Shown here: piece by piece, positions 11,573 to 50,932 of the stretch
Layout of the letters: every line of letters begins with the position of its first letter
Numbering within the stretch: the first letter of the stretch is position 1
From: Torpedo marmorata
Lineage: Eukaryota
Direction of reading: 5' to 3'
NCBI GenBank assembly: GCA_977017645.1
Contig: OZ360229.1
Location: 103,850,001 to 103,914,000 of the forward strand
Length of the DNA stretch: 64,000 nt
Notes under the pieces: generated by a model
The model's input: the letters and a program-made list of their open reading frames with translations, nothing else
Told to the model about the DNA's origin: nothing
Database searches by the model: none
Made by a program: the position numbers and the translations under genes

Positions 11573-11807
11573 TGATGAGCCCATCAATAACTTCAAAAGA
11601 CTAGAAGTTACACTTGAACTGAAAGGCTTTTATTAGCAAAAGAATGGAGCTACATCTGTGCTGGTAATCTGTCCAGGACTGGGGGAGGAGTGGTGGCACA
11701 ATGGCATTTATTCAGGGGGTCTGTGGGAGGAGCCACCGGGACAGTCAGCAGTGGGCATGTCCAGACATATCACCCATCCCAAAACCTATTCATAGTGGAT
11801 TACCACA
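11573..11807 (-). repeat. 3' LTR of Gypsy A
   Basis: Reads TG...CA on the minus strand and is a direct repeat of 20267-20500. Confidence 0.93.
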
Positions 11808-11857
11808 TTCACCCCTCCTTTTAAAAGAGTCCCACGGGGTAAAGGGTGTAACATTAC

Positions 11858-14185
11858 TTATAAAGAATTTACAAAGTACAAATCGAGTCGATCAGGCGGT
11901 CGGGTCCGCCGCTGTGATCGGCGCGGTACTTGTGGTGATGGGGCATGCGGCGGTGCTGCCTCCTGCCTGATTTGGGGTACCGGCACATCTGGCGTTCGCA
12001 AAACCTCGTGTGAATATGCCGGTACGTTTGGTGTCATGTTTGAATTGGGTGGTGCCTCTTGTGTGTCTTTAATTGTATGTACGGGTGTGACAGTAAATAC
12101 GGAGTGTTCGAGGGCGGGTCCCAGTGCTCCTGCAGGCGCCAGGTCCCGGATGGAGACCGTGTCTTCCCGCCCATCAAGAAAAACCACGTAGGCGTACTGG
12201 GGGTTCGCGTGTACTAATTGAACCCTCTCGACCAGGAGTACTTATTGCTCCTGACATGTTTCCGGAGCAGCACTGGCCCTGAGGACGTCAGCCATGCTGG
12301 TAGGGTAGTCCCGGTGGTTGAATTCCTTGGGAAGGAAAAGAGTCTCTCATGAGGTGTGGCATTGGTTGATGTGCATAGCAGGGATCGGATGGAGTGGAGT
12401 GCCTCGGGAAGGACTTCTTGCCAGCGGGAGACTGGTAATCCCTTAGACCTGAGGGCTAAGAGTGTGGCCTTCCAGACCATGGCGTTCTCCCTCTCCACGT
12501 CCATTTCCCCGTGGGTTATAGCTCATGGTCCTGCTAGTCGCGATACCCCTGGCCAGCAGGTAGTGGCGCAGCTCGTCACTCATAAACGAGGACCCTCGGT
12601 CACTATGTATACAGCAGGGGTATCCAACCAATGTGAAGAGTTTGCGGAGGGCTTTTATGACCAAGGTGGTAGTGGTATCGGGGCAGGGAATGGCGAAAGG
12701 GAACCGCGAGTATTCGTCAATGACGTTGCGGAAGTACACATTGCAGTCGGTGGAGGGAAGGGGGCCCCTAAAGTCGACGCTTAGCTGCTCAAACAGGCGG
12801 GTTGCTTTTATCAACTGTGCTTTGTCAGGTCTGTAGAAGTGCGGTTTGCACTCTGCGCAGACTTGACAGCTCCCGGTCATCGTCCTGACCTCTTCCAGGG
12901 CTTACAGCAGGTTACGAGCTTTTACAAAGTGGAAAAGCCGGGTGACTCCGGGGTGGCAGAGGTCGCAGTGGAGGGCATATAACCAGTCGATCTGTGCGCT
13001 GGCGCACGTCCCCCGGGATAGAGCATCGGAGGGCTCATTGAGCTTCCCGGGCCGGTACATTATATCATAGTTGTAGGTGGAGAGTTCGATCCTCCACCTC
13101 AGGATTTTATCATTTTTGATTTTACCCCGCTGCTGGTTGCTGAACATGAATGCGACTGAGCATTGGTCAGTCAGCAGGGTAAACCTTTTGCCGGCGAGAT
13201 AGTGCCTCCAGTGCCTGATAGCTTCCACTATGGCGTGGGCCTCTTTCTCCACTGCTGAGTGCCGAATTTCTGGGCCTTGAAGTGTACGGGAGAAGAACGC
13301 CACCGGTCTTCCCACTTGGTTGAGGGTAGCAGACAGTGCGAAGTTAGACGCGTCGCTCTCTACTTGGAAGGGAGTGGACTCGTCCACCGCGCTGCTCTGG
13401 CAATGTCCCCTTTTATGAGGCTGAAAGCCTCATGTGCCTCCGCTGCAAGGGGAAAAGTGGTGGACTTGACAAGGGGGCGGGCCTTGTCCGCATAATTAGG
13501 GACCCATTGAGCATAGTAAGAAAAGAAGCCCAAGCACCTTTGAGGGCTCTGAGGGTGTAGGGAAGCGGTAGTTCCAACAGGGGGCACATGCGGTCAGGGT
13601 CAGAGCTGATGACCCCGTTCTCCACAACACACCCTAGTCGGGTGGTTCCGAACATGCACTTATCCTTGTTATAGGTGAGGTTAAGTGCTTTGGTTGTCTG
13701 GAGGAACTTCCGGAGATTGTTATCATGGTCCTGCCGGTCGTGACTGCAGATCGTGATGTTGTCTAGGTATGGAAAAGTGGCCTTTAATTTGTACTGGTCC
13801 ACCATCCTGTCCATCTCCCTCTGGAAGACTGATACCCCAGTTGTGACCCCGAAGGGGACGCGCAGGATATGATAGAGTCTGCTGTCCGCCTCGAAGGCGG
13901 TGTAGGGGCGGTCCTCCAGGCGAGTGGGGACCTGGTGGTAGGCAGATTTGAGGTCTATGGTGGAGAATAGCTTATATTGGGCTATCTGGTTCACCATATC
14001 TTCGATGCGTGGTAGAGGGTATGCGTCAAGCTGTGTGAACCTATTGACGGTCTGACTATTATCTACCACCATCCTATTTTTCTCCCCGTTCTTGACGACA
14101 ACCACCTGGGTCCTCCAGGGACTCGTGCTCGCCTCGATGATCCCTTCCCCAAGTAATCACTGCACCTCTGACTTAATGAATGCCC
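11858..14185 (-). pseudogene. Gypsy A pol (RT, RNase H, integrase), fragmented
   Basis: ORF pieces carry DAYPLP, IDLKSAYHQ, PFG, YLDN, VESDAS, EKEA, LCHPG..CQVC, IHSDRG and RRTRPPDRLDL. Confidence 0.92.
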
Positions 14186-14438
14186 TGTGGTAAACCACTG
14201 TGTTTGTATTTGTGGTATGTACAGGTATTACAGGCCGGACTGATGTCTACTCCCTCCCCTCCCTTGGGTGTCCAGGTAATCCCTCCCCTTTCCTCACCTG
14301 AATAAAGGCCACTGTATCTCGGCCACCCCCTCCAGTCCGGATCTGATCGAGTAGGAAGCACGGCTTCATTCTTAGTCAATAAAAGCCTATGATTCACTTG
14401 CTCTCACAGTCTTCGAGTGATTATTGATAGGCCTATCA
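14186..14438 (+). repeat. 5' LTR of Gypsy B
   Basis: TGTGG...TATCA; TATA-like aataaagg at 14301 and AATAAA at 14378. Confidence 0.96.
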
Positions 14439-14461
14439 ATTTTATTGACTAAGTACTTCTG

Positions 14462-17400
14462 ATGGAAGGAGCACTACGGCCGGCTATCCTCGACCTCGAT
14501 CACCTAGCCCACGATGCCGGTAACGTCTTCGAACACTGGCTGCGATGTCTAGAATCGTTTATGGACACCATCGAAGCCGTAAGTGAAGCGCAACGATTGA
14601 AAGTCCTCATCTCCAGGGTGAGCTCTCGAGTGTACGTTACGATAAGAGACTGTGAAACCTACACGGGGGCTATGGATGCCCTGAGAGGAATCTACCTGTC
14701 GCCTGTCAACGGGGTCTACGCGCGATACCGGCTCTACTCCCGAATGCAGCGAGCAGGGGAATCGACCGTGGAATATGTCAGGGCCATACAGTCACTAGCA
14801 CGGGCGTGCAACTGTAAAGCCCTGACTGCTGAGGAACATTTGCGAGTGGTGGAGCGAGATGCGTTCATCATGGGGCTCAGGTCGGTATATGTGCGCCAGA
14901 GACTGCTAGAGCACGCCGACCTGGACTTTCGGGGGGCCGTAGCGATGGTCCGCACGTTGGAGACCGCGCAGCGGAACTCCGATGCCATGCAAGCTCGCGA
15001 CCCCCAGCCCGCAACGTGGTCAGCCCCATCTCCCAGCCCTGCGAACGAGATGACCGCCGCTGCCGCCATCCGTGCCGACCCGACCGCTACCGCGATCCTC
15101 ACCGCCGCTGCAGCCAGCCGCGAGCCCGAGAAGTGTTACTTCTGCGGGCTTGAGAAGCACCCGCGGAAGCGCTGCCCGGCCCGCGACGCAACTTGTTCCG
15201 GATGCGGCAGGAAAGGCCACTACGTGAAGGCCTGCCGCTCCAAGTCGCGCCCGGGTCTGAGCAGCGCCGCGTGCGAGCTGCGGGGGCAGCCATCTTACCT
15301 GAGGAGGCTTCCGGAGTCAGCCTCGTGCGAGCTGCGGGGGCAGCCATCTTACCTGCGGGAGCTTCCGGAATTGGCCTCATGCGAGCCGCGGGGGTGGCCA
15401 TCTTTGATGCTGGCACTTCCGGCGCCACCCGCGTCGGTACTTCCGGCCATACTACCGCCGCCATCTTACGGCAGCAGCAGCAGCGACACGTGCGAGCCAC
15501 GGGAGCGGCCATCTTTGTCGGCAGTAGAAGAAGATGAAGAATACATCGCAACTCTTGCCTCAGTCACCCTCGACCAGAACATCCCTCACCAGTTGTCGAG
15601 ATCCATGATGGACATTCTGGTGGAGGGACACAAAACCACCTGCCTCTTCGATACGGGCAGTACGGAGAGCTTCATCCACCCGGACACTGTCCAGCGCTGT
15701 GGCCTCACTACCATACCGGTAAGCCAGAGGGTGGCCATGGCGTCTGGGTCACACACAACAGACATCCGGGGGACTTGTGTGGCTGATATTGTTGTACAGG
15801 GGACTAAGTATAAACATTTTTCTTTATTTATAATGAATCGTTTGTGTGCACCCGTATTGTTGGGACTTGATTTTCAGAGCCACTTGCGCAGTGTTACTAT
15901 GCGGTACGATGGTCCCCACCCTGCGATCACTGTAGTCAACCACCAGTTCCATAATAATGAGCCCCAGACTACCTGTGGCCTCTCCACTCTTAAGATCTCG
16001 CCTCCGTCGTTATTCGCCAACCTGACCCCTGACTGTAAGCCTGTTGCAACCAAGAGCAGGCGATACAGTTCGGAGGACAGGGCGTTTATCAAGACGGAGG
16101 TACAGAGGTTGCTACAAGAGGGGATTATTGAAAGGAGCAATAGTCCCTGGAGGGCCCAGGTGGTTGTGGTAAAAGGGGCCAAGAGTAGGATGGTGGTGGA
16201 CTACAGTCAGACGATTAACCGGTTCACCCTGTTGGACGCATACCCGCTACCAAGAATTGCGGATATGGTTAATCAGATCGCTCAGTATAAGGTCTTTTCT
16301 ACGATTGACCTGAAGTCCGCGTACCATCAGCTCCCTATCCGTCGGGAGGACCGCCAGTACACTGCGTTCGAGGCTGACGGGAAACTGTTCCACTTCCTGC
16401 GGGTCCCGTTCGGGGTGACTAATGGTGTTTCTGTGTTCCAGCGGGAGATGAATAACATGGTAGAGGTATATAAACTTAAAGCCACCTTCCCGTATCTGGA
16501 CGATATCACCATCTGTGGGCTGGATCGCCAGGATCACGACACCAATCTCCGGAAGTTCCTGCAGGCGGCTAAAGCACTAAACCTAACATACAATAAAGAT
16601 AAATGTGTGTTCGGTACCACGCGCCTCGCTATTTTGGGGTACGTGGTAGAGAACGGGGTGATTGGGCCAGACCCCGATCGCATGCGCCCCCTACTGGAAC
16701 TTCCACTACCCTCCACCCCCAAAGCACTCAAGCGATGCCTCGGGTTCTTTTCATATTATGCACAATGGGTACCGAATTATGCAGATAAGGCCCGACCCCT
16801 GGTGAAATCCACCGTATTTCCCCTTGACTCGGAGGCACGTAAGGCTTTTGACCTTATAAAAGGGGACATTGCGCGAGCAACAATGCACGCGGTGGATGAG
16901 GAGATACCTTTCCAGGTAGAGAGTGACGCGTCGGACTTCGCGCTGGCTGCTACCCTCAACCAAGCGGGAAGGCCGGTGGCGTTTTTCTCGCGCACCCTTC
17001 AAGGCCCCGAAATTCGGCACTCCGCGGTAGAGAAAGAAGCCCAGGCCATCGTGGAAGCAATCAGGCACTGGAGGCACTATCTCGCCGGCAAGCATTTTAC
17101 CCTGCTGACCGACCAACGCTCGGTGGCATTTATGTTCAGCAACCAACAGCGGGGTAAGATCAAAAACGACAAGATCATGAGGTGGAGAATAGAACTCTCC
17201 ACCTATAACTACGACATCCTCTACCGGCCCGGGAAGCTCAATGAGCCCTCAGACGCTCTATCCCGGGGATCATGCGCCAGCGCGCAGATCGACCGATTAC
17301 ACGCCCTACAAGACCTCCTCTGTCACCCAGGAGTTACCAGGCTTTTTCACTTTGTGAAGGCACAGAACCTGCCATACTCCCTGGAGGAAGTCAGGACTTT

Positions 17401-18410
17401 GACCAGAGACTGTCAGGTTTGCGCAGAGTGCAAACCTCAGTTCTACCGCCCGGACAGGGCACAGCTGATCAAAGCCACGCGCCCCTTTGAACGTCTTAGT
17501 ATTGACTTCAAGGGGCCCCTTCCCTCCACGAACCGCAACGTGTACTTCCTAAACGTTGTTGACGAGTACTCGCGGTTCCCCTTTGCCATCCCCTGCCCCG
17601 ACACTTCAGCTACCTCAACCATAAAAGCTCTCCACCAGGTATTCGCGCTGTTTGGTTTCCCAAACTACATACATAGCGACCGGGGAGCAGCTTTTATGAG
17701 TGAGGAGCTGCGCAGGTACCTGCAGGACCGAGGCATCGCCACCAGCAGGACAACAGCATACAACCCCCGAGGAAATGGACAGGTGGAAAGGGAGAACGCT
17801 ACGGTGTGGAAGGCCGCGCTCCTAGCCCTTAAGTCAAAGGGCTGGCCGGTCTCCCGCTGGCAGGATGTTCTCCCCGAAGCCCTCCACTCTATCCCTACTA
17901 TGCACTTCCACCAACGCAACTCCTCATGAACGATTTTTTTCCTTCCCCAGGAAGTCGACCACCGGGACCTCCCTACCTGCCTGGCTTATGTCCCCGGGAC
18001 CAGTGCTGCTCCGCAACCACCTTCGGAGCAGCAAATATGAACCGACGGTTCAGAGGGTGCAGTTGGCGCACGCCAACCCCCAATATGCGTACGTGGTCTT
18101 CCCTGATGGACGAGAGGACACAGTCTCCATCCGAGACCTGGCGCCTGATGGGGCGCCAGAGGAGCATTCCGACGGGCAAGTCCACGTACTGCAAAACACA
18201 CCGCCACCCCTTCCTAACGCCCCACCCGATGTGTTAGACCCCGCCCCCTCAACGGGACCGCAAGCGTTCCGAGAGGCCAGGCAGGAGGCGACGGCACAGA
18301 CGAACCTACCACCTCCCCCATCACTAATATCTTCCCCAGCACCACAGCCCGACCCGACACTACGCAGGTCACAGCGGAAAATTCGGCCGCCGGATCGCCT
18401 GGACCTGTGA
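14462..18410 (+). CDS. gag-pol: Gypsy B Gag-Pol polyprotein; single ORF broken by one frameshift near 17890 in integrase
   Basis: The 1155-aa ORF has two CCHC-type knuckles (CYFC..H..C, CSGC..GH..C), protease LFDTGS, RT YLDD, RNase H SDAS and integrase IDFKG/HSDRG/VER. It continues in ORF 17865-18410 to PPDRLDL. Confidence 0.93.
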
Positions 18411-18498
18411 AAAGGAGGGTCTATATGTATATATATGTATTGTGTGATTAGAGTGGTCACGTCACCCCGCTGGACTCTTTCTAAAAAGGAGGGGTGAA

Positions 18499-18751
18499 TG
18501 TGGTAAACCACTGTGTTTGTATTTGTGGTATGTACAGGTATCACAGGCCGGACTGATGTCTACACCCTCCCCTCCCTTGGGTGTCCAGGTAATCCCTCCC
18601 CTTTCCTCACCTGAATAAAGGCCACTGTATCTCGGCCACCCCCTCCAGTCCGGATCTGATCGAGTAGGAAGCACGGCTTCATTCTTAGTCAATAAAAGCC
18701 TATGATTCACTTGCTCTCACAGTCTTCGAGTGATTATTGATAGGCCTATCA
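18499..18751 (+). repeat. 3' LTR of Gypsy B
   Basis: Direct repeat of 14186-14438. Confidence 0.96.
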
Positions 18752-18756
18752 TGCCC

Positions 18757-20243
18757 TGTCCCCTGTGCTGTATCTCCTGCTCTTGGTTGCCACGGGTTTA
18801 CAATCAGGGGTCAGATTGGGGAAGAGTGTTGGGGGTGGGATCTTGAGGGTGGATAGACCGCAAGTAGCGTGGTGTGACGAAATACATCTGCCGTTTTTAA
18901 GAAATTGGTGGTTACCGACAGTAATTGGTGGGACGGGCCCGTCATACTCCATAGTCACACTTTGGAGGTGACTCTGGAAGTCGAGCCCCAGTAGTACAGG
19001 GGCACACAGTCAGGACATGACCAATAGCGTGAAGTCCCGGTATTCAGTGTCCTGCACCACTAGCATCGCTACACAACCCCCCCGGATGTCTGTTGTGTGC
19101 GACCCGGAAGCCATGGCAACCCTCTGGCTTATCGGCTGTGTCTTGAGGCCGCATCACTGTACCGTGTCTTGGTGAATGAAGCTCTCTGTGCTGTCTGTGT
19201 CGAACAGGCAGTTTGTTCTGTGTCCCTTGACCAGGATGTCCATCATCGACCTCGCGAGTTGGTGGGGTGCACTCTGATCGAGTGTAACTGACGCCAACGT
19301 TGAGTCGCTGTCTTGATCCGACGCGATGGAGTGCCTGCCATTCCGGGATATCGGCACCCTGTGCCGGCGCGGTGGCGTGGAACAAAATGGCCGCTCCCAT
19401 GGCTCGCACGTGTTGGCCGCGGGTAAGTAAGATGGCGACGACGGAAGTGACGACACGCAAGATGGCCACCCCCATGTCTCGCACGCGGCGCTGCTCGATC
19501 CCGCTTGTGGTTTAGATCTACAGACCTTAGCGAAATGGCCTTTCTTCCTGCAACTGGAGCAGGTCGCTTCTCGGGCCGGGCAACGTTTCCGGGAGTGCTT
19601 TTCAAGTCCGCAGAAGTAGCATTTCTCGGATCGCGGCTGACGGCAGCTGTGGTCGATTCACCGGCGTGGTGTGGGGTCTGCAGTATCCACGGAGCCTGCG
19701 GGAGATTGCGTGCCTGTATAGCATCAGAGTTCTGTAGCGCGGCCTCCAGTGTATCGGCCAGCTTGTTCGCGGAACGGAAGATGAGGTCAGCTTGTTCCAG
19801 CAGCCGCTGGCGCACATACACTGACCTCGTCCCCATAACAAAAGCGTCTCTTACTAGGAGCTCTGCGTGTTGTTCGGCCGTCAGTCCCTGGCAGTCACAG
19901 GCCCGCACGAGTGTCTGTAGGGCCCGGACGAACTCTGCGCTCGACTCTCCGGGCCACTGCTGCCGCGTCGCTAGCCGGTGTCGCGCATATACAGTATTCA
20001 CAGGCCGTATATACTGCTTTTTAAGGGCATTCATAGCGTCTTCGTAAGTCTGCAGATCTCTGATCATGGAGTAGACTCGTGGGTTTACCCTAGAGAGGAG
20101 GACCTTGCGTTTTGCGGTGTCTTCTTGTACCTTGATCTCCTCCAGGAACGACTCAAAATAGGCTAGCCAGAGTTCAAAAGCATTGCCGGCCTCTGGTGTT
20201 TGTGGATCGAGGTCCAGTTTGTTTGGTCTCAAGACATTCTCAT
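18757..20243 (-). pseudogene. Gypsy A gag-protease, frameshifted
   Basis: ORFs 19243-20232, 19154-19456 and 18749-18958 are homologous to the N-terminal part of elements B and C. Confidence 0.9.
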
Positions 20244-20266
20244 TCTTACAATTTTGCCAATAAAAT

Positions 20267-20500
20267 TGATGAGCCCATCAATAACTCCAAAAGACTAGAA
20301 GTTACACTAGAAGTGAAAGCTTTTATTGGCAAAAGAATGGAGCTAAATCCGTGCTTATAATCTGTCCCGGTCTGGGGTAGGAGTGGTGGCACAATGGCCT
20401 TTATTCAGGGGGTCTGGGGAAGGAGCCACCGGGACAGTCAGCAGAGGGCACGTCCAGACATATCACCCATCCCACAACCTATACATAGTGGTTTACCACA
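20267..20500 (-). repeat. 5' LTR of Gypsy A
   Basis: Direct repeat of 11573-11807; gag starts immediately inside it. Confidence 0.93.
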
Positions 20501-20957: not shown

Positions 20958-22950
20958 CTCAATCATCTGTCGAGACTATGAAAAGATATTGAAATATTCC
21001 ATGTCTGAACTTTATCTCTTAAAATTGGACAACGTATTTCCGAGCCAAGATTAGAGGTCAGAGAAAGCTTCAGATTGCATCCAACTGCACCATAAGTAAT
21101 TTGAAGTGTTTTATATATTCCAAGCCACATCAATGAATCTCCTTCACTTTGAACACAAAAAAAATCATGAAGAAATATTTAAAAATAGTATTAATATGCT
21201 GACACTGGTTAAATACAAGTCAGAATATCAACCCAGATACAAATTAGTTGTATGTGGTTAATCCAAGCTGTTAGGTCAACTAATTAAATTGCTAGTGAAT
21301 AGCAGAATGTTATCATCAGCAGAATTAATTCTCTCCAACAAAACTGTGTTTCAGACCTCATGAACAAGGACGAATACCATGTTGGTATGTATGCTTATAT
21401 AATACAGGCCTTTGTTGATGGGTGGGCCAGGTGTCTTTCATTGTGAAGTCTAATTACTGGAATTCTTTGACTGCTAATGTTTATCTGTCCAGGGCACTTG
21501 CTGACTGAAAAAAACAAGTAACAACATCTGCAGATGTTACTGGGGCCAAGATCCTGTGTAAAACAGGCAGAGAATCTCAATGACGGTTACTAATGGTTAA
21601 AAAGAGGAAAAGGAGCAACACCTTTGACAAATTATGCCAACAGCAACCATACCCTAGTGGCAACAAGAGACTACTGAACACTGCAAAATGTTTGAACAAG
21701 GGCTTTTAAAATGAACAACAAACCAACTAACTCTTAATAGCTTATATTTTTATTTTCACTGCACCCCATGCATTCTTGCTCCACCTACTGAACACTGCAA
21801 AAGAACAAAATCCCTGGGTAACACAGGTCAAAAAGCATGTGCAGGAGAAACTAGTTATAATGGCCCACAAAATATATCCTATAAAGATTTCTTTAACCCT
21901 TCGATTACTGAAGCCAAAGTGGACAGCAATTTTGGATTTGAAGTCTGAATCACGGTGACTATTTATTGAGCATTTTTATACCACAATTACATCTGAATTT
22001 TTGCACATTATTATTAATCGCTATCAGTTTCAGATCAAACGCACTGCAATTAGTAAAAAACTGGAGCCTTCCATTCAGCAGTGAGCGCCTGTCACCATTT
22101 ACCCCAAAGAGGCCAGGCCACAAAGATTAACCAGCCTCTGAAGCATCAAGTTCCATGTACCCAATGCTGGCACATCCATTATAGGAGATGTGTGAAGTTC
22201 AATAATAGTGAAATCATCAAGAATGCCAATCAGATATGAACGTTTTCACAGAGCATAAGATAAGAAGTAAAAATCACTCCATTTTATAATCATAGTATAT
22301 TTTAAAAAATCAAGAATACGAGCCAGGATTTAGCTGGATTTTTCAGGACTAGAGAGGTTATTCAGTGGTATTTAGGGCTTCATACATTCTTAAACCTCAT
22401 TCATTGTGGCTTAAAGATTTTCAAAATAATAATTGAAAGTTACCATTAAAATTCATAACAATGCTTCTGAATCGACCAAATCCACAAAAGTTCGAACAAC
22501 ACACCAAACTTCATTTGCAGACAAGCCACGTGTCTGATTGCTACACTGTCCTGTTTAGTTATGCACGTATGTAGACACCATCTCTGTCATTTCACAATTT
22601 TACAATTGTAAATGACATGCCAATTTATGATTAATGATGAGAGCTCACTTAACTTCATGCAAACCTGACTATTGTAACAGATTAATTACCGAATATTTTG
22701 GCGAATAAGTCGACTCGCGGAAAAGTTGACCACCCTTTTTCAGCCTAATTTTAATGGTTTTATTGTATATCCGGTGTATAAGTCGACCCCCAAAAATTGC
22801 GATGCCTGAGATGCTGAGCGTTGACCGGCGTATAAGTCGACCCCCAAAAATCGCAATGATTGCGCTACTGGGCGTTGACCGGCGTATAGGTCGACCCACA
22901 ACGATCGTGCTGATTTAGCTGCTGGGCGTTGGCTGGAGGTGATTGTTATC

Positions 22951-24223
22951 ATGGAGGCTCAATTGAAACGACGAAAGTATGAGGCGAGTTTTAAATTAAA
23001 AGTGATAGAAATGGGCAAGAAAACCAACAACTGTGTTGCTGCAAGAAAATTTGATATATATGAGAAGTTGGTAAGAGATTGGAGGAAGAAAGAAGATATT
23101 TTAAGAAAAATACCAAAAAGGCAATGTTCGATGAGAAGAGGAATCACTCGTTGGCCAGAGTTGGAAAATCATGTTGCAGCATGGGTACGTGAACAGAGGC
23201 AAGATTGCTACATAGTCACCCAAAATAAAAGAACATTTGCACTGAAGTGGGCAAAGTCGCACCCAGAACTCAGTAATGATTTTGAAGCTACAGTAGGCTG
23301 GTGCAACCGTTTTATGAACAGGAAAAATCTGGTATTACGACAAAAAACAAAAATTGCTCAGAAACTACCAAAAGATCTTGATCATAAAGTTGTAAGTTTT
23401 CACCAGTTTATTTTACGTAACCGGCAGAAGCACCAGTTTGCATTGGCAAATATTGGAAACATGGACGAAACCCTCATGAATTTTGACATGATAGGCAATA
23501 GAACAGTGGAATGGAAAGGTGTGAAAACTGTGCAAACCAGGAGTACAGGCCATGAAAGGACCAGGTTTACTGTGCATGGCCGACGGGACAAAGTTAAGAC
23601 CCATGGTAATCTTCAAACGTAAATTTAAACCTAAAATAAAATTCCCTGCGGGTATTTTTGTACATTTTCATGAAAAAGGATGGATGGATGAAAATGGTGT
23701 AAGACTATGGATAGACAATGTGTGGAACAGGCGGCCAGGTGGTTTACGCAAGGAACGGAGTTTGCTGGTCTGGGATATGTTTCGTAGCCACTTAACTGAG
23801 AAGACTAAAAGTAGATTAGCACAACATAATACTTACATGGCGGTTATCCCGGGTGGTTTGACGTCTATATTGCAACCTCTCGATGTCTGCTTGAACAAGC
23901 CATTCAAAGACGATGTGCGTGAAGAGTGGAATACATGGATGTCGAGTGCATCGCTTGATGTGCTGTGTGACTTTGTGCTCAAGGCATGGGACAAAGTGAA
24001 AGTAGAGACTGTAATAAAATCGTTTAAAAAGTGCGGTATCTCTTGTGCAATTGATGGTACGGAAGATGATTTATTGTGGGACACTGACAACGAAGCTGAA
24101 GACGTCTCATCAGATACAGACTGGGACCCGTACGATGACTGTTTAAACAGTGAGACCCCGGATGTGCTTGCCGAGATCTTTGCCTCAGACGATGATAGCG
24201 AAAGTGATTTTGAAGGGTTCTAA
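22951..24223 (+). pseudogene. pogo transposase (Brinker-type DBD, CENP-B HTH, DD35D), frameshift near 23570
   Basis: RRKYEASFKLKVI..KLVRDWRK, WPELE..W, GWCNRFMNR, NMDET, VWD-35aa-LD(VCLNKPFK) and an acidic tail. Confidence 0.9.
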
Positions 24224-24288
24224 ATGTCTTGTTGTTTTTTTCAATAAAAATGTCAATGAAAATTTGTTGCAGTCGGTTTTTTTTTGGT

Positions 24289-24408
24289 TTTTCAAGGGTC
24301 GACTTATACGCCGAATCGGGTTTTCAAGGGTCGACTTATACGCCGAATCGTGTTTTCAAGGGTCGACTTATACGCCGAATCGGGTTTTCAAGGGTCGACT
24401 TATACGCC
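24289..24408. repeat. Subterminal 32-bp tandem repeat (about 3.7 copies) containing the TIR core gggtcgacttatacgcc
   Basis: Unit ttttcaagggtcgacttatacgccgaatcggg. Inverted cores also occur near 22772, 22826, 22880 and 24462. Confidence 0.9.
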
Positions 24409-25402
24409 AAATTGGCGTGGAGTGGTTTTTGAGCTGATTTTAAGGTCTCAAAAGTATATCGGGCGTATAAGTCGACCCCCGTTTTTGAGAGATTTTTGAG
24501 GGTTTCAAGACTCGACTTATACGCCGAAATATACGGTATATACAAAATTTCAGATGTTTGAGCAGCAGCAAATGATGTAATACCCCAGCCAATCATGGCA
24601 TGAAAATGCATAAGTTTGTGTGTTGCTGAAATTACAACTGGACTGCTTTTTTTGCCACCGAGCAGGTCAATTGCAATGTTTCCAAATCAAAGTTTACCAT
24701 TTTTATTGCCCACGTACTCTATTCCCTGTTAGGTTCTTGAATGCTTTTGCTGTATGTTTTCCTGAGTGTAGAAACATTCTTTAAAATTGCTAGGATTCCA
24801 TTTTGAAGAAGGCAAAAAAAAAATCCAGTTGTGAAATTGTTGCTGTCACATCTTTTTTACTTTTCAAAACAGCCTTCCAGAAGAAACCACATGCGCAGTA
24901 AATGATGAGCTTGGTAGAATCAATTTAATCCTGCAAAATTTCAAGTTTCTAACCCTTTTAATGACCCAGTAATATCAGAATCAGAATCAGAATTTATTGT
25001 CATGAACAAGTCATGAAATTCGGTGTTCTGCGGCAGCATCATAGTGCAAACATTCATATTATTACCATCTTACGACATTACTATAATAAAATATACATGA
25101 TAGTGCACGAAATGTAAGGCAGTGTCTTTGGTTCATTGATTATTCAGGAATCTGATGGCAGCGGGGAAGAAGCTATCCTTGTGCTGTTGAGTGCTTGACT
25201 TTAGGCTCCTGTACCTTTATCCCGATGGTAGCAGAGTGAAGAGGGCATGGCCTGGGTGGTGGGGGTCTTTGATGACAGAAGCTGCTTTTTTAGGACACCG
25301 TCTCGTGTAGATGTCCTCGATGGAGTGAAGTCTGGTGCCTGTGATGTCATAGGCCGAGTTAACAACCCCCTGGAGTTTATTCTTGTCCTGAGAGTTGGCG
25401 CC

Positions 25403-26079
25403 TGTAAGAGCCATAGGCTCACTACCTACCTTCTGTTTTGGCCACGGGCGCCAGCGGTGTCCCGGGGTCCGTAGGCCTCTTCCGTAGGCCGCACCAGCGC
25501 GAGCGCCGCCACCGCTTACGGAGCTGGAGCATGCGTGGTTAGCCAGCGGCGGTGGCTTCGGCTGGGGCCGGCGTATCCATCAGTGCGCATGCGCACTGAT
25601 GGACTGGGTCGACGCGTGCGCGGTTGTCTCGGCCCCGGTGGCGAGCGGTTGGAGCCGGGGCCAGCGCGTGTAGCCACGGAGCATGCGCGGGTGGGATCTT
25701 CTTTTAAAGAGGTTCCCCCGCGCGAGTCGGCAGTTGAAAACCTGAGGAGGGTGAGTTAGATGTCGACAATCTCTGTCGACCGTTTAATACTTTTGGAAAT
25801 CGTTTTATACTTTTGGAAATCGTTTAATACTTTTGGAAATCGTTTAATACTTTTGGAACACTTTTTATAACCTTTTTACATTGTTTTATATCCTTTTACA
25901 TTATTTTACATCATTTCAAGAAATGTTTATATTAAAGTCTGAAGATTACTGCAAGTCTAATGTAAATAAAGGTTTTTTGAACATTTTGGACTTTGTTGGT
26001 AAATGAATGAAAACGCGTCGCAGACAAACATCTAACTTAGCCTCCAAGCGACTATTTTTTATTGGACGAAGTCGCTACA
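25403..26079 (+). repeat. 5' LTR of the BEL/Pao element
   Basis: CpG-rich 5' half, TATA-like ttttaaa at 25702, and four copies of a 20-bp unit cgtttaatacttttggaaat at 25781-25859. Confidence 0.95.
25576..25603. promoter_or_regulatory. Perfect 28-bp palindrome centred on an NRF1 consensus in the LTR U3
   Basis: tccatcagTGCGCATGCGCActgatgga; the 3' LTR copy has one mismatch. Confidence 0.5.
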
Positions 26080-26486
26080 TTAAGTCGACAGAGAATTTGT
26101 TGAACTAAGTCGACAGAGATTCGGTCACTGAAACGGAAAATAGGATAGGAAGGAGAAGCCAGGAGGGTCAGTGAGGTTTCCAGATACATAAGGACCACAC
26201 TTAGCCTCCAGGTGACCAACGTTGGATCGAAGTCACCGCAATCTACGTAGTCAATAGAGAGCTGGCTGTTTGGAACAGAAAATAGAAGGAAAGAAGATAA
26301 AAAAACTCGTTTGTGGATTGCAGCACATTACAGTCAGTTGAAGTGGTTGGCATAAGTCTGTGGACTCCTTCTGTGTATCTTTAGTAAGTAAGAACACAGA
26401 TTGGAATTGCTGCCGCTGGTCCATTGGGGACTGTTGTTTGGCTGGTATTGTGTATGCTTGAAGGAAAGAGGAACTAGACGAGTAAA

Positions 26487-29400
26487 ATGGCCGCAGCAGC
26501 CACTGATACAGCAGCTACTGATATATCAGCAGCTGGCGCAGCAACCGCTGATGTTGCTGTTGAGGACCGACGTATTGAAGACATGAAGGTTACGGATATT
26601 AAAGAAGAATTGAAGCGACTGAAAAAGGACATAAGAGGAAATAAAAGGGTTCTTATCGAAAGATTGAAGCAGGCAAAGGATGAAGAGGCAGCTTCATTAA
26701 ATGAACAAGAAGATAACTTGGAAATGGCTGAAATTGTGTCAACAAATGATGAAGGAATTAAAGTGGTTGAAGATTCAAAGGATATACAATTTGAATTGAA
26801 TAAAGAGGTAAGTATGAAGACAGCATATGAACTGCAGGACGAAATACAAGCAAGTGACAGTGTCTCAATTGCTGAAAGCAGGAGAAGCAAAAGAAGTTCT
26901 GGTTCGAGCTCCAGAGTTTCTCGCACTTCAAATTATACATCGTCACGTACAAATGTTGATGTTAAATTGGCCGCTCTTCTTGCACAACAAAAAATGCTTA
27001 AGGATAAATATATTTTGGAAGAAGAGGAGGAGCAGCTAAGACAAAAGGAGAAGCAGCTAATGGAGCAGCTAAGACAAGAGAAGGAGCAACTAAGGCAGAG
27101 AAAAGAACAGCAGGAGCTAGAAGCAAACATTGCTATTTCCAAGGCAGAAAAGAAAGCAATAGAAGGCTCGATGGTATCTGGTGCTAGCAGTAAATTATCT
27201 AAATTGTCTGATAATAAAAGGTCATATTTAAAAAAGGAGTCACAGGAAAAGAAACCAACCAAAAGGATAGATATTTTAGAACCAAGGATACAAAACTTAC
27301 ATATACAAGGACAAACCTTTCAAGGGCATATTGGTATCGAGTCACATGTACCAATAGTAACATCTGAAGACAAGGCTGCGGCTTGGGTTCGGTCGAACGA
27401 AGCAGCTTCTTTGTTATATGAGACAAGAATCAGAAATATGGAAGAAACTACACCAGTGAGGTTTCCAGATACATTGCATGCAACAAGAGACAGTGAACAG
27501 AGCAATGTATTGACATCCAAGGAAAGACAAAATGAAATTGCTGCATCATTGTTTCAGTTACAGTCTCTCTCTTCTTTACCCAAAAAGGAGATACAAACCT
27601 TTGATGGTGATCCACTTCAATATCAATCATTTATGAGATCTTTCAAACGCAATATTGAATATAAATGTCAAGGTCGTGATGAATGTCTTTATTATTTGGA
27701 AATGTTTACAAAGGGACATCCAAAAGAACTGGTAAAGAGTTGTAAACAAATGTCTTCAGAAAGAGGATTAGACAAAGCTAAGGCTTTACTGGAACAATAT
27801 TTTGGCAACAAGCATCGAATTGCTTTAGCTTATATGGATAAAGCTCTTAATTGGACATCAATAAAACAAAATGATGTAAAGGCTCTGCAAGAATATACTC
27901 TGTTTTTAAGAGGATGTTGTAATGCTATGGAAGAAATCGATAATATTCGTGAGCTTGAAGTGCATAGTAATATGCGAATCATCTTAGAAAAATTATCTTA
28001 CAAGTTATGGGATAGATGGAGAAATTTGGCTTGTGATTTACAAGTAGATTACGGTCGAAAGAGTACCTTAAAGGATTTGGTAAATTTTCTTGAACGACGG
28101 GTGTACGTTGAAACAGATCCACTATATGGAAATGCCAGAGATAATTCAATGGGCAAAGATGTAAAGAAGTCTAACACACAGTCTAGTCCGAAAGTAAAAA
28201 GGAGTACCTTTGCTACTAATGTGCAAGTTATAAGTAAAGAAAAGGACAAAGTAAATAAGGAAAAGGAAAGTTTGCCTGATGAAAAGAGTTGTTTGTTCTG
28301 TAAAGGTGGACATGCTTTGGAAATGTGTTTACGATTGGAAAAGAAGGAACATAAGGAAAAGATCGCTTTCTTAAAGGAAAATGGAATATGTTTTAGCTGT
28401 TTGTGTAAAGGACACATCAGTAAAAACTGCGAGAAGCGAATTAATTGTAACATATGCAATTTGAAACATCCTAGAATTTTGCATATCCATAACAGAAACA
28501 AGGAATTGGGAAAAGAGCAAACAGAAACAAAGGAAACAACAGAAAATAATGTTATAACCTCGGTTCAGACAAGTGGTCTTACTGGGGCCGGAATGAATAA
28601 CTGCAAACTTTCAATAGTGCCTGTACAAGTCAAGGCCAAGAAAGGGGATGTAATAGTTAAAACATATGCATTTTTAGATCCAGTCAGCACTGCTTCCTTT
28701 TGCACGGAAGGACTAATGATTAAACTTAATATTCAAGGAAAAAGATCAAAAATTATGTTAAGAACAATGGGACAAGAAAAGGTTGTTGAAACTAACATTG
28801 TTTCAGGCTTAGAGGTTGCTGGATTGGATGACAAAAAAATTTGTGATCTTCTAAGTGTATATACTCAGAAGACTATGCCTGTGAATGAAGGAAATATTCC
28901 TCATCAAAGGGATATCCATCATTTAGCTTATCTGTGGAAGGTTTATTTACCTGAGATTAATTCTGAGATAGAAATGCTGATTGGTTCAGATGTGCCAAAG
29001 GTTTTGGAACCGAAAGAAGTAATAGAGAGTAAAAGGAATGGACCTTACGCTATTAGAACCAAGTTTGGTTGGACAATCAATGGACCACTGGAAAGAAATA
29101 ATGATATTGCTCAGGAACAGTTGGCGATAAATATTAATAGAATTTCGGTTGAGAAAGTTGAAGAGTTAAGCGAAGAGCAAAAAACTGTGAATAAGAAAAT
29201 CACTTTTGAAGAAAAGAAAACAGATCAATGTGAAAATAAATCAATGGTATTTAAAACAACATTGAAGGAATTAATTTCGTCAGAAATGGATGAAAGTGAA
29301 GTATTAGAAAATGTTGCAAATAATACTATTGATCATTCATGTGTAATTGAATCCAATACAGGAATAAAACAAGTGACTGAAAACAAATCTGAATGTAGAT

Positions 29401-30203
29401 TTTGTAATTCAGAGAATACAACAGACAAAGCTAACGAAGAAAGATTACAACGTGATGTAAAACTGGAAAACACAGAAAACTGTACTGATGGAATAAAGAA
29501 TATTGCGAATGATAATTTAATGCAATTGAATTCAGAGAACAAAATGTTGAAAGGGGAATTGGAAATATTAGATAATCAAGAAAACAGTAAACAGAAAGAT
29601 TTAATTGTAAGTAAAACTCGCAAAGTCAGAAAGCGGAAGAAAAGAATAACTGCTGAAGAAATGAATACAGTTATCGAGGAAAGAGATTTAGCATTATCAA
29701 AATGTAAAAGGTTGGAGGAAGAGATTAATGTTTTGAAAGAGAACAAGTTATTGGTTAATAACACAAAACAATTAACAATGCAGAAAGAATGTGATATTGC
29801 ATTGCAGAAATATAACAAACAAGACGAAGAAATTAAAAAATTTCAAGTTTGCCGCAACAGGATTGACAATGGAAATATCAATGTAGCACATGATATTTTG
29901 ACTTCAGATCAAAGTATTAATTTCTCGAAAAGAACTGAGACCGAATTGAAAGTTGCAAAATTGGATTTAGAATTGCAGGAAAGAGCCATAGAAACCAGAG
30001 TGGTTAAACAGACCTGTTTAAAATCGAAAGGATCAGATAAATATTCAAATTCTAGTTCTAAGAGTTTAAATTCTTCACATGAGAAGTGGAATACTGAAAA
30101 AAGAAATAAAGTGAAACGACATGTTGAAGAAGTGCCTTGTGTTAAATTCAAAAGAAAAACTGTATCTATTTTATCTGAGGAAGATTTGAAGTTTACTGGT
30201 TAA
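26487..30203 (+). CDS. 1238-aa chimeric polyprotein: SAP domain, BEL/Pao Gag (three Zn knuckles), aspartic protease-like domain, coiled-coil tail with MIPOL1-like segments
   Basis: The ORF is uninterrupted. SAP-like IEDMKVTDIKEELKR...GNKRVLIERLKQA; Gag LPKKEIQTFDGDPLQY..F; knuckles CLFC..H..C, CFSC..GH..C and CNIC..KH..LH; protease TYAFLDPVS..LIGSD..RTKFGWTINGP; tail RITAEEMNTVIEERDLALSKCKRLEEE. Confidence 0.85.
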   Translation: MAAAATDTAATDISAAGAATADVAVEDRRIEDMKVTDIKEELKRLKKDIRGNKRVLIERLKQAKDEEAASLNEQEDNLEMAEIVSTNDEGIKVVEDSKDIQFELNKEVSMKTAYELQDEIQASDSVSIAESRRSKRSSGSSSRVSRTSNYTSSRTNVDVKLAALLAQQKMLKDKYILEEEEEQLRQKEKQLMEQLRQEKEQLRQRKEQQELEANIAISKAEKKAIEGSMVSGASSKLSKLSDNKRSYLKKESQEKKPTKRIDILEPRIQNLHIQGQTFQGHIGIESHVPIVTSEDKAAAWVRSNEAASLLYETRIRNMEETTPVRFPDTLHATRDSEQSNVLTSKERQNEIAASLFQLQSLSSLPKKEIQTFDGDPLQYQSFMRSFKRNIEYKCQGRDECLYYLEMFTKGHPKELVKSCKQMSSERGLDKAKALLEQYFGNKHRIALAYMDKALNWTSIKQNDVKALQEYTLFLRGCCNAMEEIDNIRELEVHSNMRIILEKLSYKLWDRWRNLACDLQVDYGRKSTLKDLVNFLERRVYVETDPLYGNARDNSMGKDVKKSNTQSSPKVKRSTFATNVQVISKEKDKVNKEKESLPDEKSCLFCKGGHALEMCLRLEKKEHKEKIAFLKENGICFSCLCKGHISKNCEKRINCNICNLKHPRILHIHNRNKELGKEQTETKETTENNVITSVQTSGLTGAGMNNCKLSIVPVQVKAKKGDVIVKTYAFLDPVSTASFCTEGLMIKLNIQGKRSKIMLRTMGQEKVVETNIVSGLEVAGLDDKKICDLLSVYTQKTMPVNEGNIPHQRDIHHLAYLWKVYLPEINSEIEMLIGSDVPKVLEPKEVIESKRNGPYAIRTKFGWTINGPLERNNDIAQEQLAININRISVEKVEELSEEQKTVNKKITFEEKKTDQCENKSMVFKTTLKELISSEMDESEVLENVANNTIDHSCVIESNTGIKQVTENKSECRFCNSENTTDKANEERLQRDVKLENTENCTDGIKNIANDNLMQLNSENKMLKGELEILDNQENSKQKDLIVSKTRKVRKRKKRITAEEMNTVIEERDLALSKCKRLEEEINVLKENKLLVNNTKQLTMQKECDIALQKYNKQDEEIKKFQVCRNRIDNGNINVAHDILTSDQSINFSKRTETELKVAKLDLELQERAIETRVVKQTCLKSKGSDKYSNSSSKSLNSSHEKWNTEKRNKVKRHVEEVPCVKFKRKTVSILSEEDLKFTG

Positions 30204-30242
30204 CGTTTTAACTCGAAGATTATAGAGATAAAAGAACTTTGG

Positions 30243-30353
30243 AGAGACATTGTGATTATTATGGATAATTCGACTTCAAGAAACTCCTGGTTACTTGGAA
30301 AAATTATTGAGACTTTTCAAGACAAAGGAGGAACTTTGATAAATGTAAACTAA
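30243..30353 (+). pseudogene. Remnant of the BEL/Pao integrase C-terminal domain (DUF5641-like)
   Basis: Translates RDIVIIMDNSTSRNSWLLGKIIETFQDKGG, matching the GD.V......PR..W.LG.I...FPD..G pattern. Confidence 0.75.
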
Positions 30354-30546
30354 CTTTATTTGTTGTTGTATATTTCAGGTTACAGAGTTTTGTTCATCCA
30401 GAGTTATGGTAAACTCTGGTCTTGTGAAGAAAGAAGAAAGGATTTGTATATTTGTTCGAATGTTATATGGTTATTGTTATTATAATGTTATAGTTATGTA
30501 ATTATTATTAGAGATGTTACATCTCATTATAATAATTAGGGGCCGG

Positions 30547-31233
30547 TGTAAGAGCCATAGGCTCACTACCTACCTTCTGTTTTGGCCACGGGCGCCAGCG
30601 GTGTCCCGGGGTCCGTAGGCCTCTTCCGTAGGCCGCACCAGCGCGAGCGCCGCCACCGCTTACGGAGCTGGAGTGTGGCGGCGCATGCGTGGTTAGCCAG
30701 CGGCGGCGGCTTCGGCTGGGGCCGGCGTATCCATCAGTGTGCATGCGCACTGATGGACTGGGTCATTGCGTGCGCGGTTGTCTCGGCCCCGGCGGCGAGC
30801 GGTTGGAGCCGGGGCCAGCGCGTGTAGCCACGGAGCATGCGCGGGTGGGATCTTCTTTTAAAGAGGTTCCCCCGCGCGAGTCGGCAGTTGAAAACCTGAG
30901 GAGGGTGAGTTAGATGTCGACAATCTCTGTCGACCGTTTAATACTTTTGGAAATCGTTTTATACTTTTGGAAATCGTTTAATACTTTTGGAAATCGTTTA
31001 ATACTTTTGGAACACTTTTTATAACCTTTTTACATTGTTTTATATCCTTTTACATTATTTTACATCATTTCAAGAAATGTTTATATTAAAGTCTGAAGAT
31101 TACTGCAAGTCTAATGTAAATAAAGGTTTTTTGAACATTTTGGACTTTGTTGGTAAATGAATGAAAACGCGTCGCAGACAAACATCTAACTTAGCCTCCA
31201 AGCGACTATTTTTTATTGGACGAAGTCGCTACA
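30547..31233 (+). repeat. 3' LTR of the BEL/Pao element
   Basis: Direct repeat of 25403-26079. Confidence 0.95.
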
Positions 31234-34076
31234 GCGCCTCCATACCAGGCAGTGATGCAACCAGCCAGAATGCTCTCCACGGTACACCTGTAGATGTTTA
31301 CAAGAGTCTTCGGTGACATACCGAATCTTCTCAGACACCTCACAAAGTATAGCCGCTGATGAGCCTTCTTTGTGATTTCATCAACGAGGAGGCTCCAGGA
31401 CAGATCCTCGGAGATGTTGACACCCAGGAATTTGAAGTTCTTGACCCTCTCCACTACTGAGCCCTCGATGAGGACTGGGTCGTGTTCCCCTGACTTCCTC
31501 CTGAAGTCCACAATCATCTCCTTGGTTTTGCTGACATTGAGCGCAAGGTTGTTGTCGTTACACTATTCAACGAGCTGATCTATCTCCCTCCTATATGCTT
31601 CCTCATTGCCGTTTGTGATTCTGCCGACAACTGTGGTGCCATCGGCAAACTTGTAGATGGCATTGGAATTATGCCTGGCCACACAGTCATGGGTGTATAA
31701 CGAGTAGAGCAGTGGGCTAAGCACGCATCCTAGGGGTGCGCCTGTGTTGATAATCAGTGAGGAGGAGACGTTGTTTCCAATTCATACTGACTGTGGTCTT
31801 CCGATGAGAAAGTCAAGGATCCAGTTGCAGAGGGGGGTACAGAGGCCTAAAGGTTGTAGCTTCTTGACCAGCACTGAGGGAATAATGGTATTGAAGTTGA
31901 TGACGAGCAGCCGTATGTATGAGTTGCTGTTTTCGAGGTGATCCAGAGCTGAGTGGAGAGCCAGTGATATTGCATCTTCTGTGGAGCGATTGTGACGATA
32001 GGCGAATTGCAGTGGGTCCATACCTTTGCTTAGGTACATGTTAATTCTGGCCATGACCAGCCTCTCAAAGCATTTCATCACAGTAGAAGTTAGTGCAGCT
32101 GGACGGTAGTCGTTGAGGCAGCTCACACTACTCGTCTTTGGTACCGGGATGATTGATACCCTTTAGAAGCAGGTGGGAACCTCTGACTGCTGCATATAAT
32201 ATAACCTCTAATTTCACAAAAAAAATATATAGACAGAGGTTTTGACATAGCTAACCATTCCAAGTATGATAAATGAGCATTAATGATAAAAATATGACTG
32301 AGCCATGAAAGAAGTGAAGATTTAGGCAGAGTCAGAGGAAAGAGCAGTGGAGGCAGGAATGCTTGCAGAGAATTCTACTGTTTAATGTCTGGGGTCACTG
32401 AGAGTAGAACAATTATGGTCGAAGATAGAGTGAAAGGAACACAAGGATCCTGGTGCTGGAGGATGAAGCAGGTTTACATCTGAAGGTGATCAGCTTCTCC
32501 TAAGATCCTCTAAAATACAAGAACTTCCATACCAAAAGATTCTATCATACGATCATGAAATCAGGAGCAAAAGAGACCATTCAACTCATTAGATTTTACC
32601 CAGATCTTCCAATGCACAACCCATCCACATCACTCACTCTGCCATTCCCCTATATCACTATAATTTCTTTCTTATTCATTATAGCGCTTCACACAATGAA
32701 GGTGAACAGTATAATATGACAGAACTGCTGTCAGTTGTGTAAAAGATTTTTGAGTAAGAAATGAGTGTCGGAATGATAAAAGAATTCATCAACAAGACCT
32801 TTAGGACAGTCATCGTCAAGGATGGATGCAAGCCTTGTTTGTTTAGCTATTAAAATCAGCTTGCTCAATTTACATTTTTCAATGAACAATGAAATATTCA
32901 TTTGTAAAAAACTATAAACATTATCAATTGAAATAAGAATGACGGTTTTAGGGATTTGATGTGCGCAAAAGAAAATTTTGAGCAATCTAGTTCAAAAATA
33001 TTTTGTTTATTGGCTGGAACTGATGGCAGCGGTTTGCTAACTGCTGATATAAACTGATGTTGTAAGCATTGCGAAATGATCACCAAATAAACAGCCTACA
33101 TCTAAAAACAAAAAGAAAATAATGCCTTTCCTCTCCATTGGCTCTACACAGTTTGTAACCACAGGAATTTCCTGAATGTGTTTGGAGACTGAAAATCTGA
33201 AATTGACTCTGTGGAGAATGGGAAGCAGTGAAGCACACATCATTGTATTTCCCTGTATATTACAAAAAGTTAAAGACATCAGCTGAAGCTGACCAACCTC
33301 CTGTGCCACAACAATCAAAATGGCCAAACAAAAGCAATAAATAACTCTTTTGGAAAACATTTAAAATGAATTGTAATTAAACTGAACATCGGGTCTCAAA
33401 CATCCCTGCAAGAGGTTCTGTAAACAAAACTGGATACAAGTACACAACATTTACAATCATCTACAATATATTACATAAACAATAGAACTTCGATTGTAAC
33501 TATCTGCCAAAGTCATACGAATAATATCAAACAATAGACCAATTTCTGCCTTTACCAATTCCAAGATTGAATTTTAAAAATGAAGTCTTTCAACATTGGA
33601 ATTAGCCCTGCAATGAAACAGTTTATTTTCAGTTCAAATCAGTCTGTAATCATATTGCCTGTTCCAACTCAACACTAATTGTCACTAAATCATCAATGAT
33701 CTATCTCTTCACGAGATCAAGGATGGCTGGCATATCAAATGGAATAATCTCACATAGGTTAGTCAAGGCATAATGTTAAGGAAAAAATTTGGAAGGTGTT
33801 TGATATTGGTTGAATGAAGAGGGCTCACAGAATTATATTTACCGTATTTGACGGCATATAAGACCCCCCTTTTTTCCCCAAAATATCACCTCAAAAACCA
33901 TCCCGGGTCTTATATGCGAAGGTGACATTTTGGTGCCGCCATTTTGGTGCCGCCATTTTGGGCACTGAGTGTAGTCCAGGAAGCGGGCCCGCAGCTTCGC
34001 GGACCATCTTCCCTTGGGTGGCCCGTACTTTCCGGAGTCGCTGCTGCCGCCGCTCACTTCCCCCAGAAAGAAGGCT

Positions 34077-50751: not shown

Positions 50752-50932
50752 CCTATATTCCTTTTAAACTCTATGTGTTCACTTAAATATTTATTCTTCT
50801 ACTATTTAAGATCTAAGCAAAGAGTGAATTGAAAATGTGTTTTCACAGTGGGAATAGCGTCCAATAGTCTGGAAAATCTGCTAGGTTGGGACTAGCAAAT
50901 TTCCAACAATGATTAGTTGTTTTCGTAAAATC

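Follow-up and report, generated by a model that had tools for sequence, protein, structure and literature searches.

How does part of a host gene come to lie inside the open reading frame of a retrotransposon, stripped of its introns and with its exons in the wrong order? The question is raised by a locus near the middle of a 64,000-nucleotide stretch of the Torpedo marmorata genome (here called the window; all features below are given on its plus strand), where a first-pass annotation had noticed two peptides resembling the host protein MIPOL1 and attributed them to capture of an mRNA by template switching.

The carrier is a non-autonomous LTR retrotransposon of BEL/Pao type, about 5.8 kb long (25403 to 31233), which is inserted in a minus-strand LINE-like repeat and flanked by a 5-bp target-site duplication (25398 to 25402 and 31234 to 31238). 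Its two LTRs (5′ LTR, 25403 to 26079, with TG...CA ends; 3′ LTR, 30547 to 31233) are identical at 671 of 677 aligned bases and also differ by one 10-nt indel. Between them, a single open reading frame (ORF) of 1238 codons (26487 to 30203) encodes a Gag-protease followed by a host-derived tail. The Gag part includes a SAP domain (26574 to 26675, E = 1.2e-6), the BEL/Pao Gag domain DUF1759 (27600 to 28022, E = 2.4e-5; its 24.8 bits are slightly below the 25.4 cut-off), and three Cys/His knuckles seen in the translation (28290 to 28484). It shares the frame with an aspartic protease region bearing an LDP motif, also read from the translation (28605 to 29100); the protease region of older copies matches DUF1758 weakly (E = 0.002 to 0.003, below cut-off). 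A domain search found no reverse transcriptase (RT), RNase H, or integrase in the ORF. A remnant of the 3′ end of pol (30244 to 30332) is 91 to 93% identical to the DUF5641 region of intact relatives, and the polypurine tract (30534 to 30546) is identical to theirs. No TGG-type primer-binding site follows position 26079, here or in the relatives (host tRNAs not being part of the comparison), and there are no tRNA genes in the 64-kb window. A short repeat lies behind the 5′ LTR, in the region 26080 to 26308, where positions 26190 to 26308 resemble the LTR end and leader of autonomous relatives (83 to 88%); this match suggests that an LTR was swapped and the end of a second one stayed behind. 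Elsewhere in the window are two Gypsy-like LTR elements (14186 to 18751 and 46281 to 50759; LTR pairs 99% and 97%) with long gag-pol frames, a related inverted copy at about 11570 to 20500, and transposase frames at 22879 to 24444, which we take from their motifs to be Pogo/Tigger-like, followed by a 32-nt tandem repeat.

Is the noted segment truly MIPOL1? Both peptides are present where they had been placed, in the frame of this ORF. A search of 5.8 billion proteins with the surrounding ORF residues gave 188 significant matches among 370 candidates; at least 120 belong to the MIPOL1 family, all 120 listed carry Pfam PF27918 and PF27921 (MIPOL1_N and MIPOL1_C), and the best among the matches listed is a ray MIPOL1 (E = 2.4e-17). 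An index-free search returned 31 unnamed matches. In composition-adjusted BLASTP, ORF residues 982 to 1131 align with MIPOL1 residues 297 to 470 (E = 4e-22) and residues 1151 to 1178 with 247 to 274 (E = 4e-4), which places the second piece out of host order, as had been proposed. Against that MIPOL1, the first piece scores 246, compared with 66 for the highest of 1000 shuffles, and the second scores 69, compared with 49. Generic coiled-coil likeness is ruled out by the MIPOL1 search, the adjusted BLASTP, and the shuffle control, in agreement with the claim that the resemblance goes further than that. The Pfam copy and PDB used contain no MIPOL1 models or structures, and the tail gave only noise in them. 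In a tree of 29 rows, the window, on a long branch, clusters with three older element copies (98/94) beside ray MIPOL1 (100/97).

A genome search with ray MIPOL1 gave 91 matches, namely one host exon and many intron-free copies with up to 86% identity. The host gene lies on contig C40, where we read 400 kb and found its exons, with GT/AG edges, over about 320 kb in the order Ea-Eb-Ec-Ed-Ee-Ef-Eg-Eh-Ei (the labels are our own). The window segment consists of the 3′ part of Ef (29597 to 29702, 88% identical to the exon in the same genome), the 5′ part of Eg (29703 to 29770, 85%) up to a 45-nt deletion, Eh up to its donor end (29771 to 29857, 82%), Eb from its acceptor (29858 to 29926, 70%) up to an 81-nt deletion, and Ec (29933 to 30011, 84%). 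The in-frame deletions of this stretch are of 3, 45, and 81 nt. At 29857/29858, the last base of Eh meets the first base of the upstream exon Eb in a reversed joint of back-splice type. An intron-free, in-frame, permuted MIPOL1 capture within a BEL/Pao-type element had thus been described correctly. It had also been described as two segments, and here the identity stands but the separateness does not: the gap between them (29850 to 29927) is MIPOL1 too, comprising the end of Eh and then Eb (48 of 69 bases identical), and there is one stretch from 29597 to 30011.

Older copies of the element begin their MIPOL1 part with the last 124 nt of Ef, run on through Eg, Eh, Eb, and Ec, and stop 21 nt into Ed; identity to the host exons is 93 to 98% in the four copies mapped first and 91 to 98% across the older copies. 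Junctions were scored in the best 30 of the 91 matches by likeness to ray MIPOL1, all of which descend from one event. The last base of Eh directly meets the first base of Eb, with no gap, in all 30. The match does cross exon-exon junctions, a check that the first-pass annotation had proposed: Ef/Eg and Eg/Eh are exact in 30/30 copies each, Eb/Ec in 26/27, and Ec/Ed in 25/26 scorable copies. Exons Eb through Eh amount to 780 nt, of which about 589 nt were captured, and no exon from outside Eb-Eh occurs in the copies mapped. Since the outer ends of Eb and Eh are both in phase 2, the joint preserves the reading frame. Four MIPOL1-carrying element copies, in both orientations, lie within introns of the host gene itself (C40 near 64495400, 64487700, 64408200, and 64340500), where they could disturb its splicing or annotation.

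MIPOL1 is one of three host genes that contributed to the window tail. The earlier description of the host content was right about MIPOL1, but the captured BRCA1 and Elongin A sequences that flank it had gone unnoticed. A BRCA1-derived part (29176 to 29596; spliced, in its native frame, and 78% identical to the host) precedes MIPOL1 and joins one small exon to the beginning of the large one. The host BRCA1 locus is on C61, with PF12820 over the cut-off and three RING exons upstream. This identification came by way of the loose end of a contig, and weaker atlas leads (<0.9) agree with it; with the BRCA1 piece, a protein search gave 0 of 686 candidates, the atlas search gave coiled-coil look-alikes, PDB gave nothing, and a DNA search of the same genome gave element copies only. 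Older copies have up to four spliced BRCA1 exons, mostly 87 to 100% identical to the host, with 76% for one small exon in two copies. The Elongin A-derived part (30002 to 30220) is in its native frame and 78% and 84% identical to two host exons, between which a 111-nt deletion lies. Exon skipping was rejected as the source of this deletion, as the last bases of the skipped exon are retained. The first 10 bases of this part, from 30002, fit Ec too, and the ORF ends within it, at 30201 to 30203. In older copies, Elongin A follows MIPOL1 (Pfam E = 6.7e-16, PDB E = 7.5e-37) and is 88 to 98% identical to spliced host exons on C41, the contig on which the window also lies.

The cassette is more varied still in other copies. 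Among ten copies chosen for a long Elongin A match, four have Elongin A residues ∼54 to 117 also directly after the pol stump. One of these four runs on into IARS1 (E = 3.6e-70), and a second copy has the same joint; in one copy NDC80 comes next, its two halves colinear and each with NDC80 as its sole match (E = 1.4e-3 and 4.6e-4). The in-frame IARS1 after Elongin A is seen in an old branch (L141:7015-7881, on G000:C60, and L140), with NDC80 in L141. All captured pieces are in sense orientation and in their native frame, with open frames of up to 803 codons, and MIPOL1 is the only one that is permuted. In L105 (6587-6605) and further old copies, MIPOL1 exon Ed is separated from Elongin A by about 17 bases that fit neither donor and perhaps represent a further, very short template.

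What kind of template could have yielded this arrangement? Judging from the sequence comparisons, we think that the MIPOL1 piece was copied from a back-spliced circular RNA by RT template switching, within a cassette of host RNA that replaced pol, and we give this reading a probability of about 0.78. The earlier proposal of template switching on RNA is retained as the best reading; the linear mRNA that it took as template is not, and the template was probably a circle because the reversed joint falls exactly on a donor and an acceptor. In such a scenario, host RNAs would have been co-packaged in the element's particles. The RT, moving 3′ to 5′, would have switched from the Elongin A RNA to a point about 21 nt inside Ed on the 780-nt MIPOL1 circle and gone back through Ec and Eb, over the back-splice joint, and through Eh, Eg, and 124 nt of Ef before passing to the BRCA1 RNA, whether in one excursion or in several rounds. 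The resulting chimera, with its LTRs, Gag-protease, and polypurine tract retained, would have been mobilised by RT and integrase that intact relatives provide, and it may go on recombining with them. A back-splice joint between two mid-exon switch points, among captured spliced RNAs and in an LTR element, is what template switching in particles predicts. Because less than one full round was captured, there is no repeated exon to prove the circle. Also counting against a circle are the three bases (AGC) common to Ea/Eb and Eh/Ei in linear mRNA, which would assist a plain switch, and a later deletion in Elongin A that, via microhomology, ended a few bases from two exon ends. On the same side are a BRCA1-MIPOL1 joint with about 2 bases of homology and the roughly 17 bases that fit neither MIPOL1 nor Elongin A.

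The spliceosome could have made the same exact joint in a linear RNA that was then captured, by trans-splicing of two MIPOL1 pre-mRNAs or after an ancestral tandem duplication of Eb-Eh, and with about 589 of 780 nt captured the sequence does not separate these routes from a circle. We nevertheless find this improbable. The 400 kb around the host gene contain a single Eb with an acceptor and a single Eh with a donor, and a present-day tandem duplication, of which there is none in that interval, was rejected. Spliced host contigs from runs X13 and X14 diverge from the reference at the joint into the true neighbouring exons, with Eh going directly to Ei; in the X14 contig, whose exon order is normal, the captured ends are 191 letters apart, exactly the length of the missing arc of the circle (109 + 34 + 48). 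None of the runs used for contigs is recorded as RNA, and element copies bear the same joint. In addition, a circular Mipol1 RNA, its exons unstated, has been reported in mouse (PMC9888537); we found no literature under the name circMIPOL1.

Less probable again is an extra RT jump on a linear MIPOL1 mRNA that took off where Eb begins, landed where Eh ends, and met both edges by chance with the aid of the three bases (AGC) that Ea/Eb and Eh/Ei share in that mRNA. The cassette does contain several switches, and the Elongin A deletion mentioned above shows that an event can end near two exon ends. Against this, a random extra switch would hit two exon edges with a chance of 8e-5, or 1.3e-3 given the frame and 2-nt homology. 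The range is 1e-4 to a few 1e-3, and somewhat higher because the real sites share three bases. Moreover, the between-gene joints inspected all fall within exons. Least credible of all is that LINE machinery inserted processed copies of host RNAs into element DNA and the element merely spread them: LINE-type RT frames are abundant in the window, and the available part of a preprint links the retrocopies of cartilaginous fishes, MIPOL1 first-listed in its top five, to non-LTR elements (bioRxiv 10.64898/2026.06.26.734816), but every piece starts and stops inside coding exons, in sense and in frame, neither poly(A) nor a duplication is seen at the joints inspected, and the pieces replace pol and do not interrupt it.

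Whatever its template, the captured cassette has spread widely. With the window tail as query, the 6.2-Gb genome has at least 150 places at 97 to 100% identity (36,783 candidates). The exact host-type 24-mer across the joint occurs at 164 places and a degenerate 25-mer pattern at 10,607, a count that takes in fragments and possible assembly duplicates; controls gave 0 for both. All of the first 40 listed junction places match the element tail, and in 9 of them an ORF of more than 1000 codons (1123 to 1349) runs through the joint. LTR pairs are at least 99% identical in 7 of the 23 junction places that have a pair. The young copies, with LTRs 99 to 100% identical, are recent insertions, and the carrier is still inserting; the older, host-like copies have LTR pairs about 88 to 93% identical. 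Contigs bridge the joint in six of eight sequencing runs (five organisms, one possibly of this genome's species). Some copies are rearranged. In L115 and L116, the N-terminal low-complexity part of gag comes after a piece that stems from the boundary between knuckles and protease, and the capsid region is missing, with the tail in frame. The MIPOL1 part forms tandem, 100% identical repeats in L118:7836-8945, and three copies lie at a spacing of about 4965 bases in G000:C31:168004984-168015348; both may be either tandem arrays or assembly artefacts.

The intact relatives are close at hand. Five of the six PF05380 loci examined match the window gag-protease at 91 to 95% and have the same polypurine tract. 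Three PF05380-bearing relatives have frames of 2018 to 2054 codons, and the one checked, 91% identical, encodes RT, Pao RNase H, and integrase; protein identity to such relatives is 86 to 87% over about 870 residues. These relatives could supply RT and integrase to the carrier. Older carriers are only 65 to 80% identical to that intact relative. From these identities we infer that the carrier backbone has kept pace with the autonomous family, whether through recombination or through joint descent, as would be expected if the two are packaged together.

Is the tail under selection? Pooled pairwise dN/dS is pseudo-replicated and has no neutral baseline, and instead we counted variants shared by at least 3 of 41 copies and compared them with private ones, dropping CpG transitions. 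Stops in the tail make up 1 of 163 shared variants and 25 of 334 private ones (p = 0.00045; p = 0.0026 with CpG kept), and inherited stop codons are thus purged from the host-derived tail. By the same comparison, the ratio of nonsynonymous to synonymous variants is 0.51 in the gag-protease core (p = 0.0003) and 1.10 in the Gag N-terminus; the whole tail stands at 0.59 (p = 0.021) and MIPOL1, taken by itself, at 0.73 (p = 0.37). The deletions of 24, 120, 45, 81, and 111 nt that occurred en route to the window all preserve the frame; among segregating indels, no bias toward keeping the frame is seen (3 in frame and 4 shifting among shared ones, 16 and 50 among private ones). Between the window and host MIPOL1, dN/dS is about 0.8, with rough alignment edges. 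We read this as suggesting that the open frame matters more than its residues and that the MIPOL1 residues drift. The tail would be translated at the former place of RT, with selection mainly for an open frame and not for MIPOL1 function, for example as a putative read-through spacer that guards against decay of RNA bearing an early stop. The mild amino-acid constraint on the tail (0.59) is not what a pure spacer predicts.

Alternatively, the tail may have been recruited as a working domain, such as a coiled coil with whose aid the Gag-protease of the defective element would co-assemble with helper particles or compete for them. The frame kept through the five deletions, the deficit of nonsynonymous variants among shared ones, which comes near that of the gag-protease core, and the presence of the junction-bearing family at more than 10,000 places all favor such a role. 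Set against them are the ratio for MIPOL1 alone, the window-to-host dN/dS, and a tail that goes on shrinking and varies between branches, and we regard recruitment as possible but doubtful. In defective retroviruses that transduce oncogenes, a host coding sequence takes the position of pol and is fused to gag, and a helper provides for their spread. Unlike them, the window element is a germline retrotransposon without env, and there is no sign that host protein function was kept. A bolder picture, to which we give slightly less credence than to recruitment itself, would nonetheless make this vertebrate BEL/Pao lineage the counterpart of a defective transducing retrovirus: pol would have given way to copies of a circular RNA and of four or more mRNAs (Elongin A, BRCA1, IARS1, and NDC80), a working coiled-coil extension of Gag-protease would exploit an autonomous helper, and the cassette would have passed over successive gag/LTR backbones to more than 10,000 copies in rays.

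The copying of a circle by RT, our preferred reading, has a precedent in mouse. Pseudogenes derived from circular RNA are defined by a donor joined to an upstream acceptor, and 33 such copies of circRFWD2 lie beside MMERVK10C-int sequence, by a mechanism called mysterious (PMC4897178). The elements described here share with them the non-colinear joint at splice sites (exact in the 30 older copies, with the window in register), the restriction to exons of the circle, the lack of poly(A), the adjoining LTR-element sequence, and the multiple copies. They differ in scale and carrier, with 10,607 junction matches in BEL/Pao compared with 33 ERV-associated pseudogenes, and in that the piece from the circle continues the open frame of the Gag-protease, lies between two other captured mRNAs, and is carried by an element that is still inserting.

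Retrocopies mediated by LTR elements offer a second comparison. The accessible part of one study describes captures by the Pao element BATUMI in fly and by BEL18_AG in mosquito (PMC5131818). Partial spliced multi-gene chimeras within LTR elements, template switching, and secondary spread are common to those cases and ours, in which partial spliced pieces have the same element on both sides and spread is secondary and non-autonomous. Copy numbers there are far lower, the word "circular" is absent from the main text as available, and the BEL matches found in the available supplements are from insects (in two of the three places shown). The first-pass annotation knew of no capture by a vertebrate BEL/Pao element. 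Our partial coverage of the literature likewise turned up no vertebrate case, but capture by insect BEL/Pao is described in the part of that study available (PMC5131818). The maize element Bs1 is also a non-autonomous LTR element with three host-gene pieces and a chimeric ORF, but it has one to five copies, belongs to plants, and has no circular-RNA joint described in the accessible parts of its reports (PMC5131818, PMC13317346). In a literature covering few subscription papers, neither this family nor any in-frame fusion of a back-splice joint within the ORF of an LTR element came up.

Altogether, these elements bear on how circular RNAs enter genomes, a copying route that the circRFWD2 paper left open (PMC4897178). 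The reversed joint would preserve an ancient circular RNA isoform in fossil form, at about 300 times the copy number of the mouse case and in an element that still moves, and the older and younger branches provide a series in which captured sequence becomes part of a selfish protein. For work on these genomes, the practical consequence is that the calling of circRNAs will be confounded, as will the mapping of reads to MIPOL1, BRCA1, and ELOA. In a recent preprint, MIPOL1 ranks in the top five for retrocopies in cartilaginous fishes, and the part available views these retrocopies as independent, not driven by LTR elements, and selectively retained; "circular," "BRCA1," and "ELOA" are absent from its main text as available (bioRxiv 10.64898/2026.06.26.734816). 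Those MIPOL1 retrocopies are probably the elements described here, which would probably explain the high rank of MIPOL1 without host selection. Finally, thousands of near-exonic copies may direct small-RNA silencing at MIPOL1, BRCA1, and ELOA, a putative effect of a selfish element on the very genes from which its tail was drawn.
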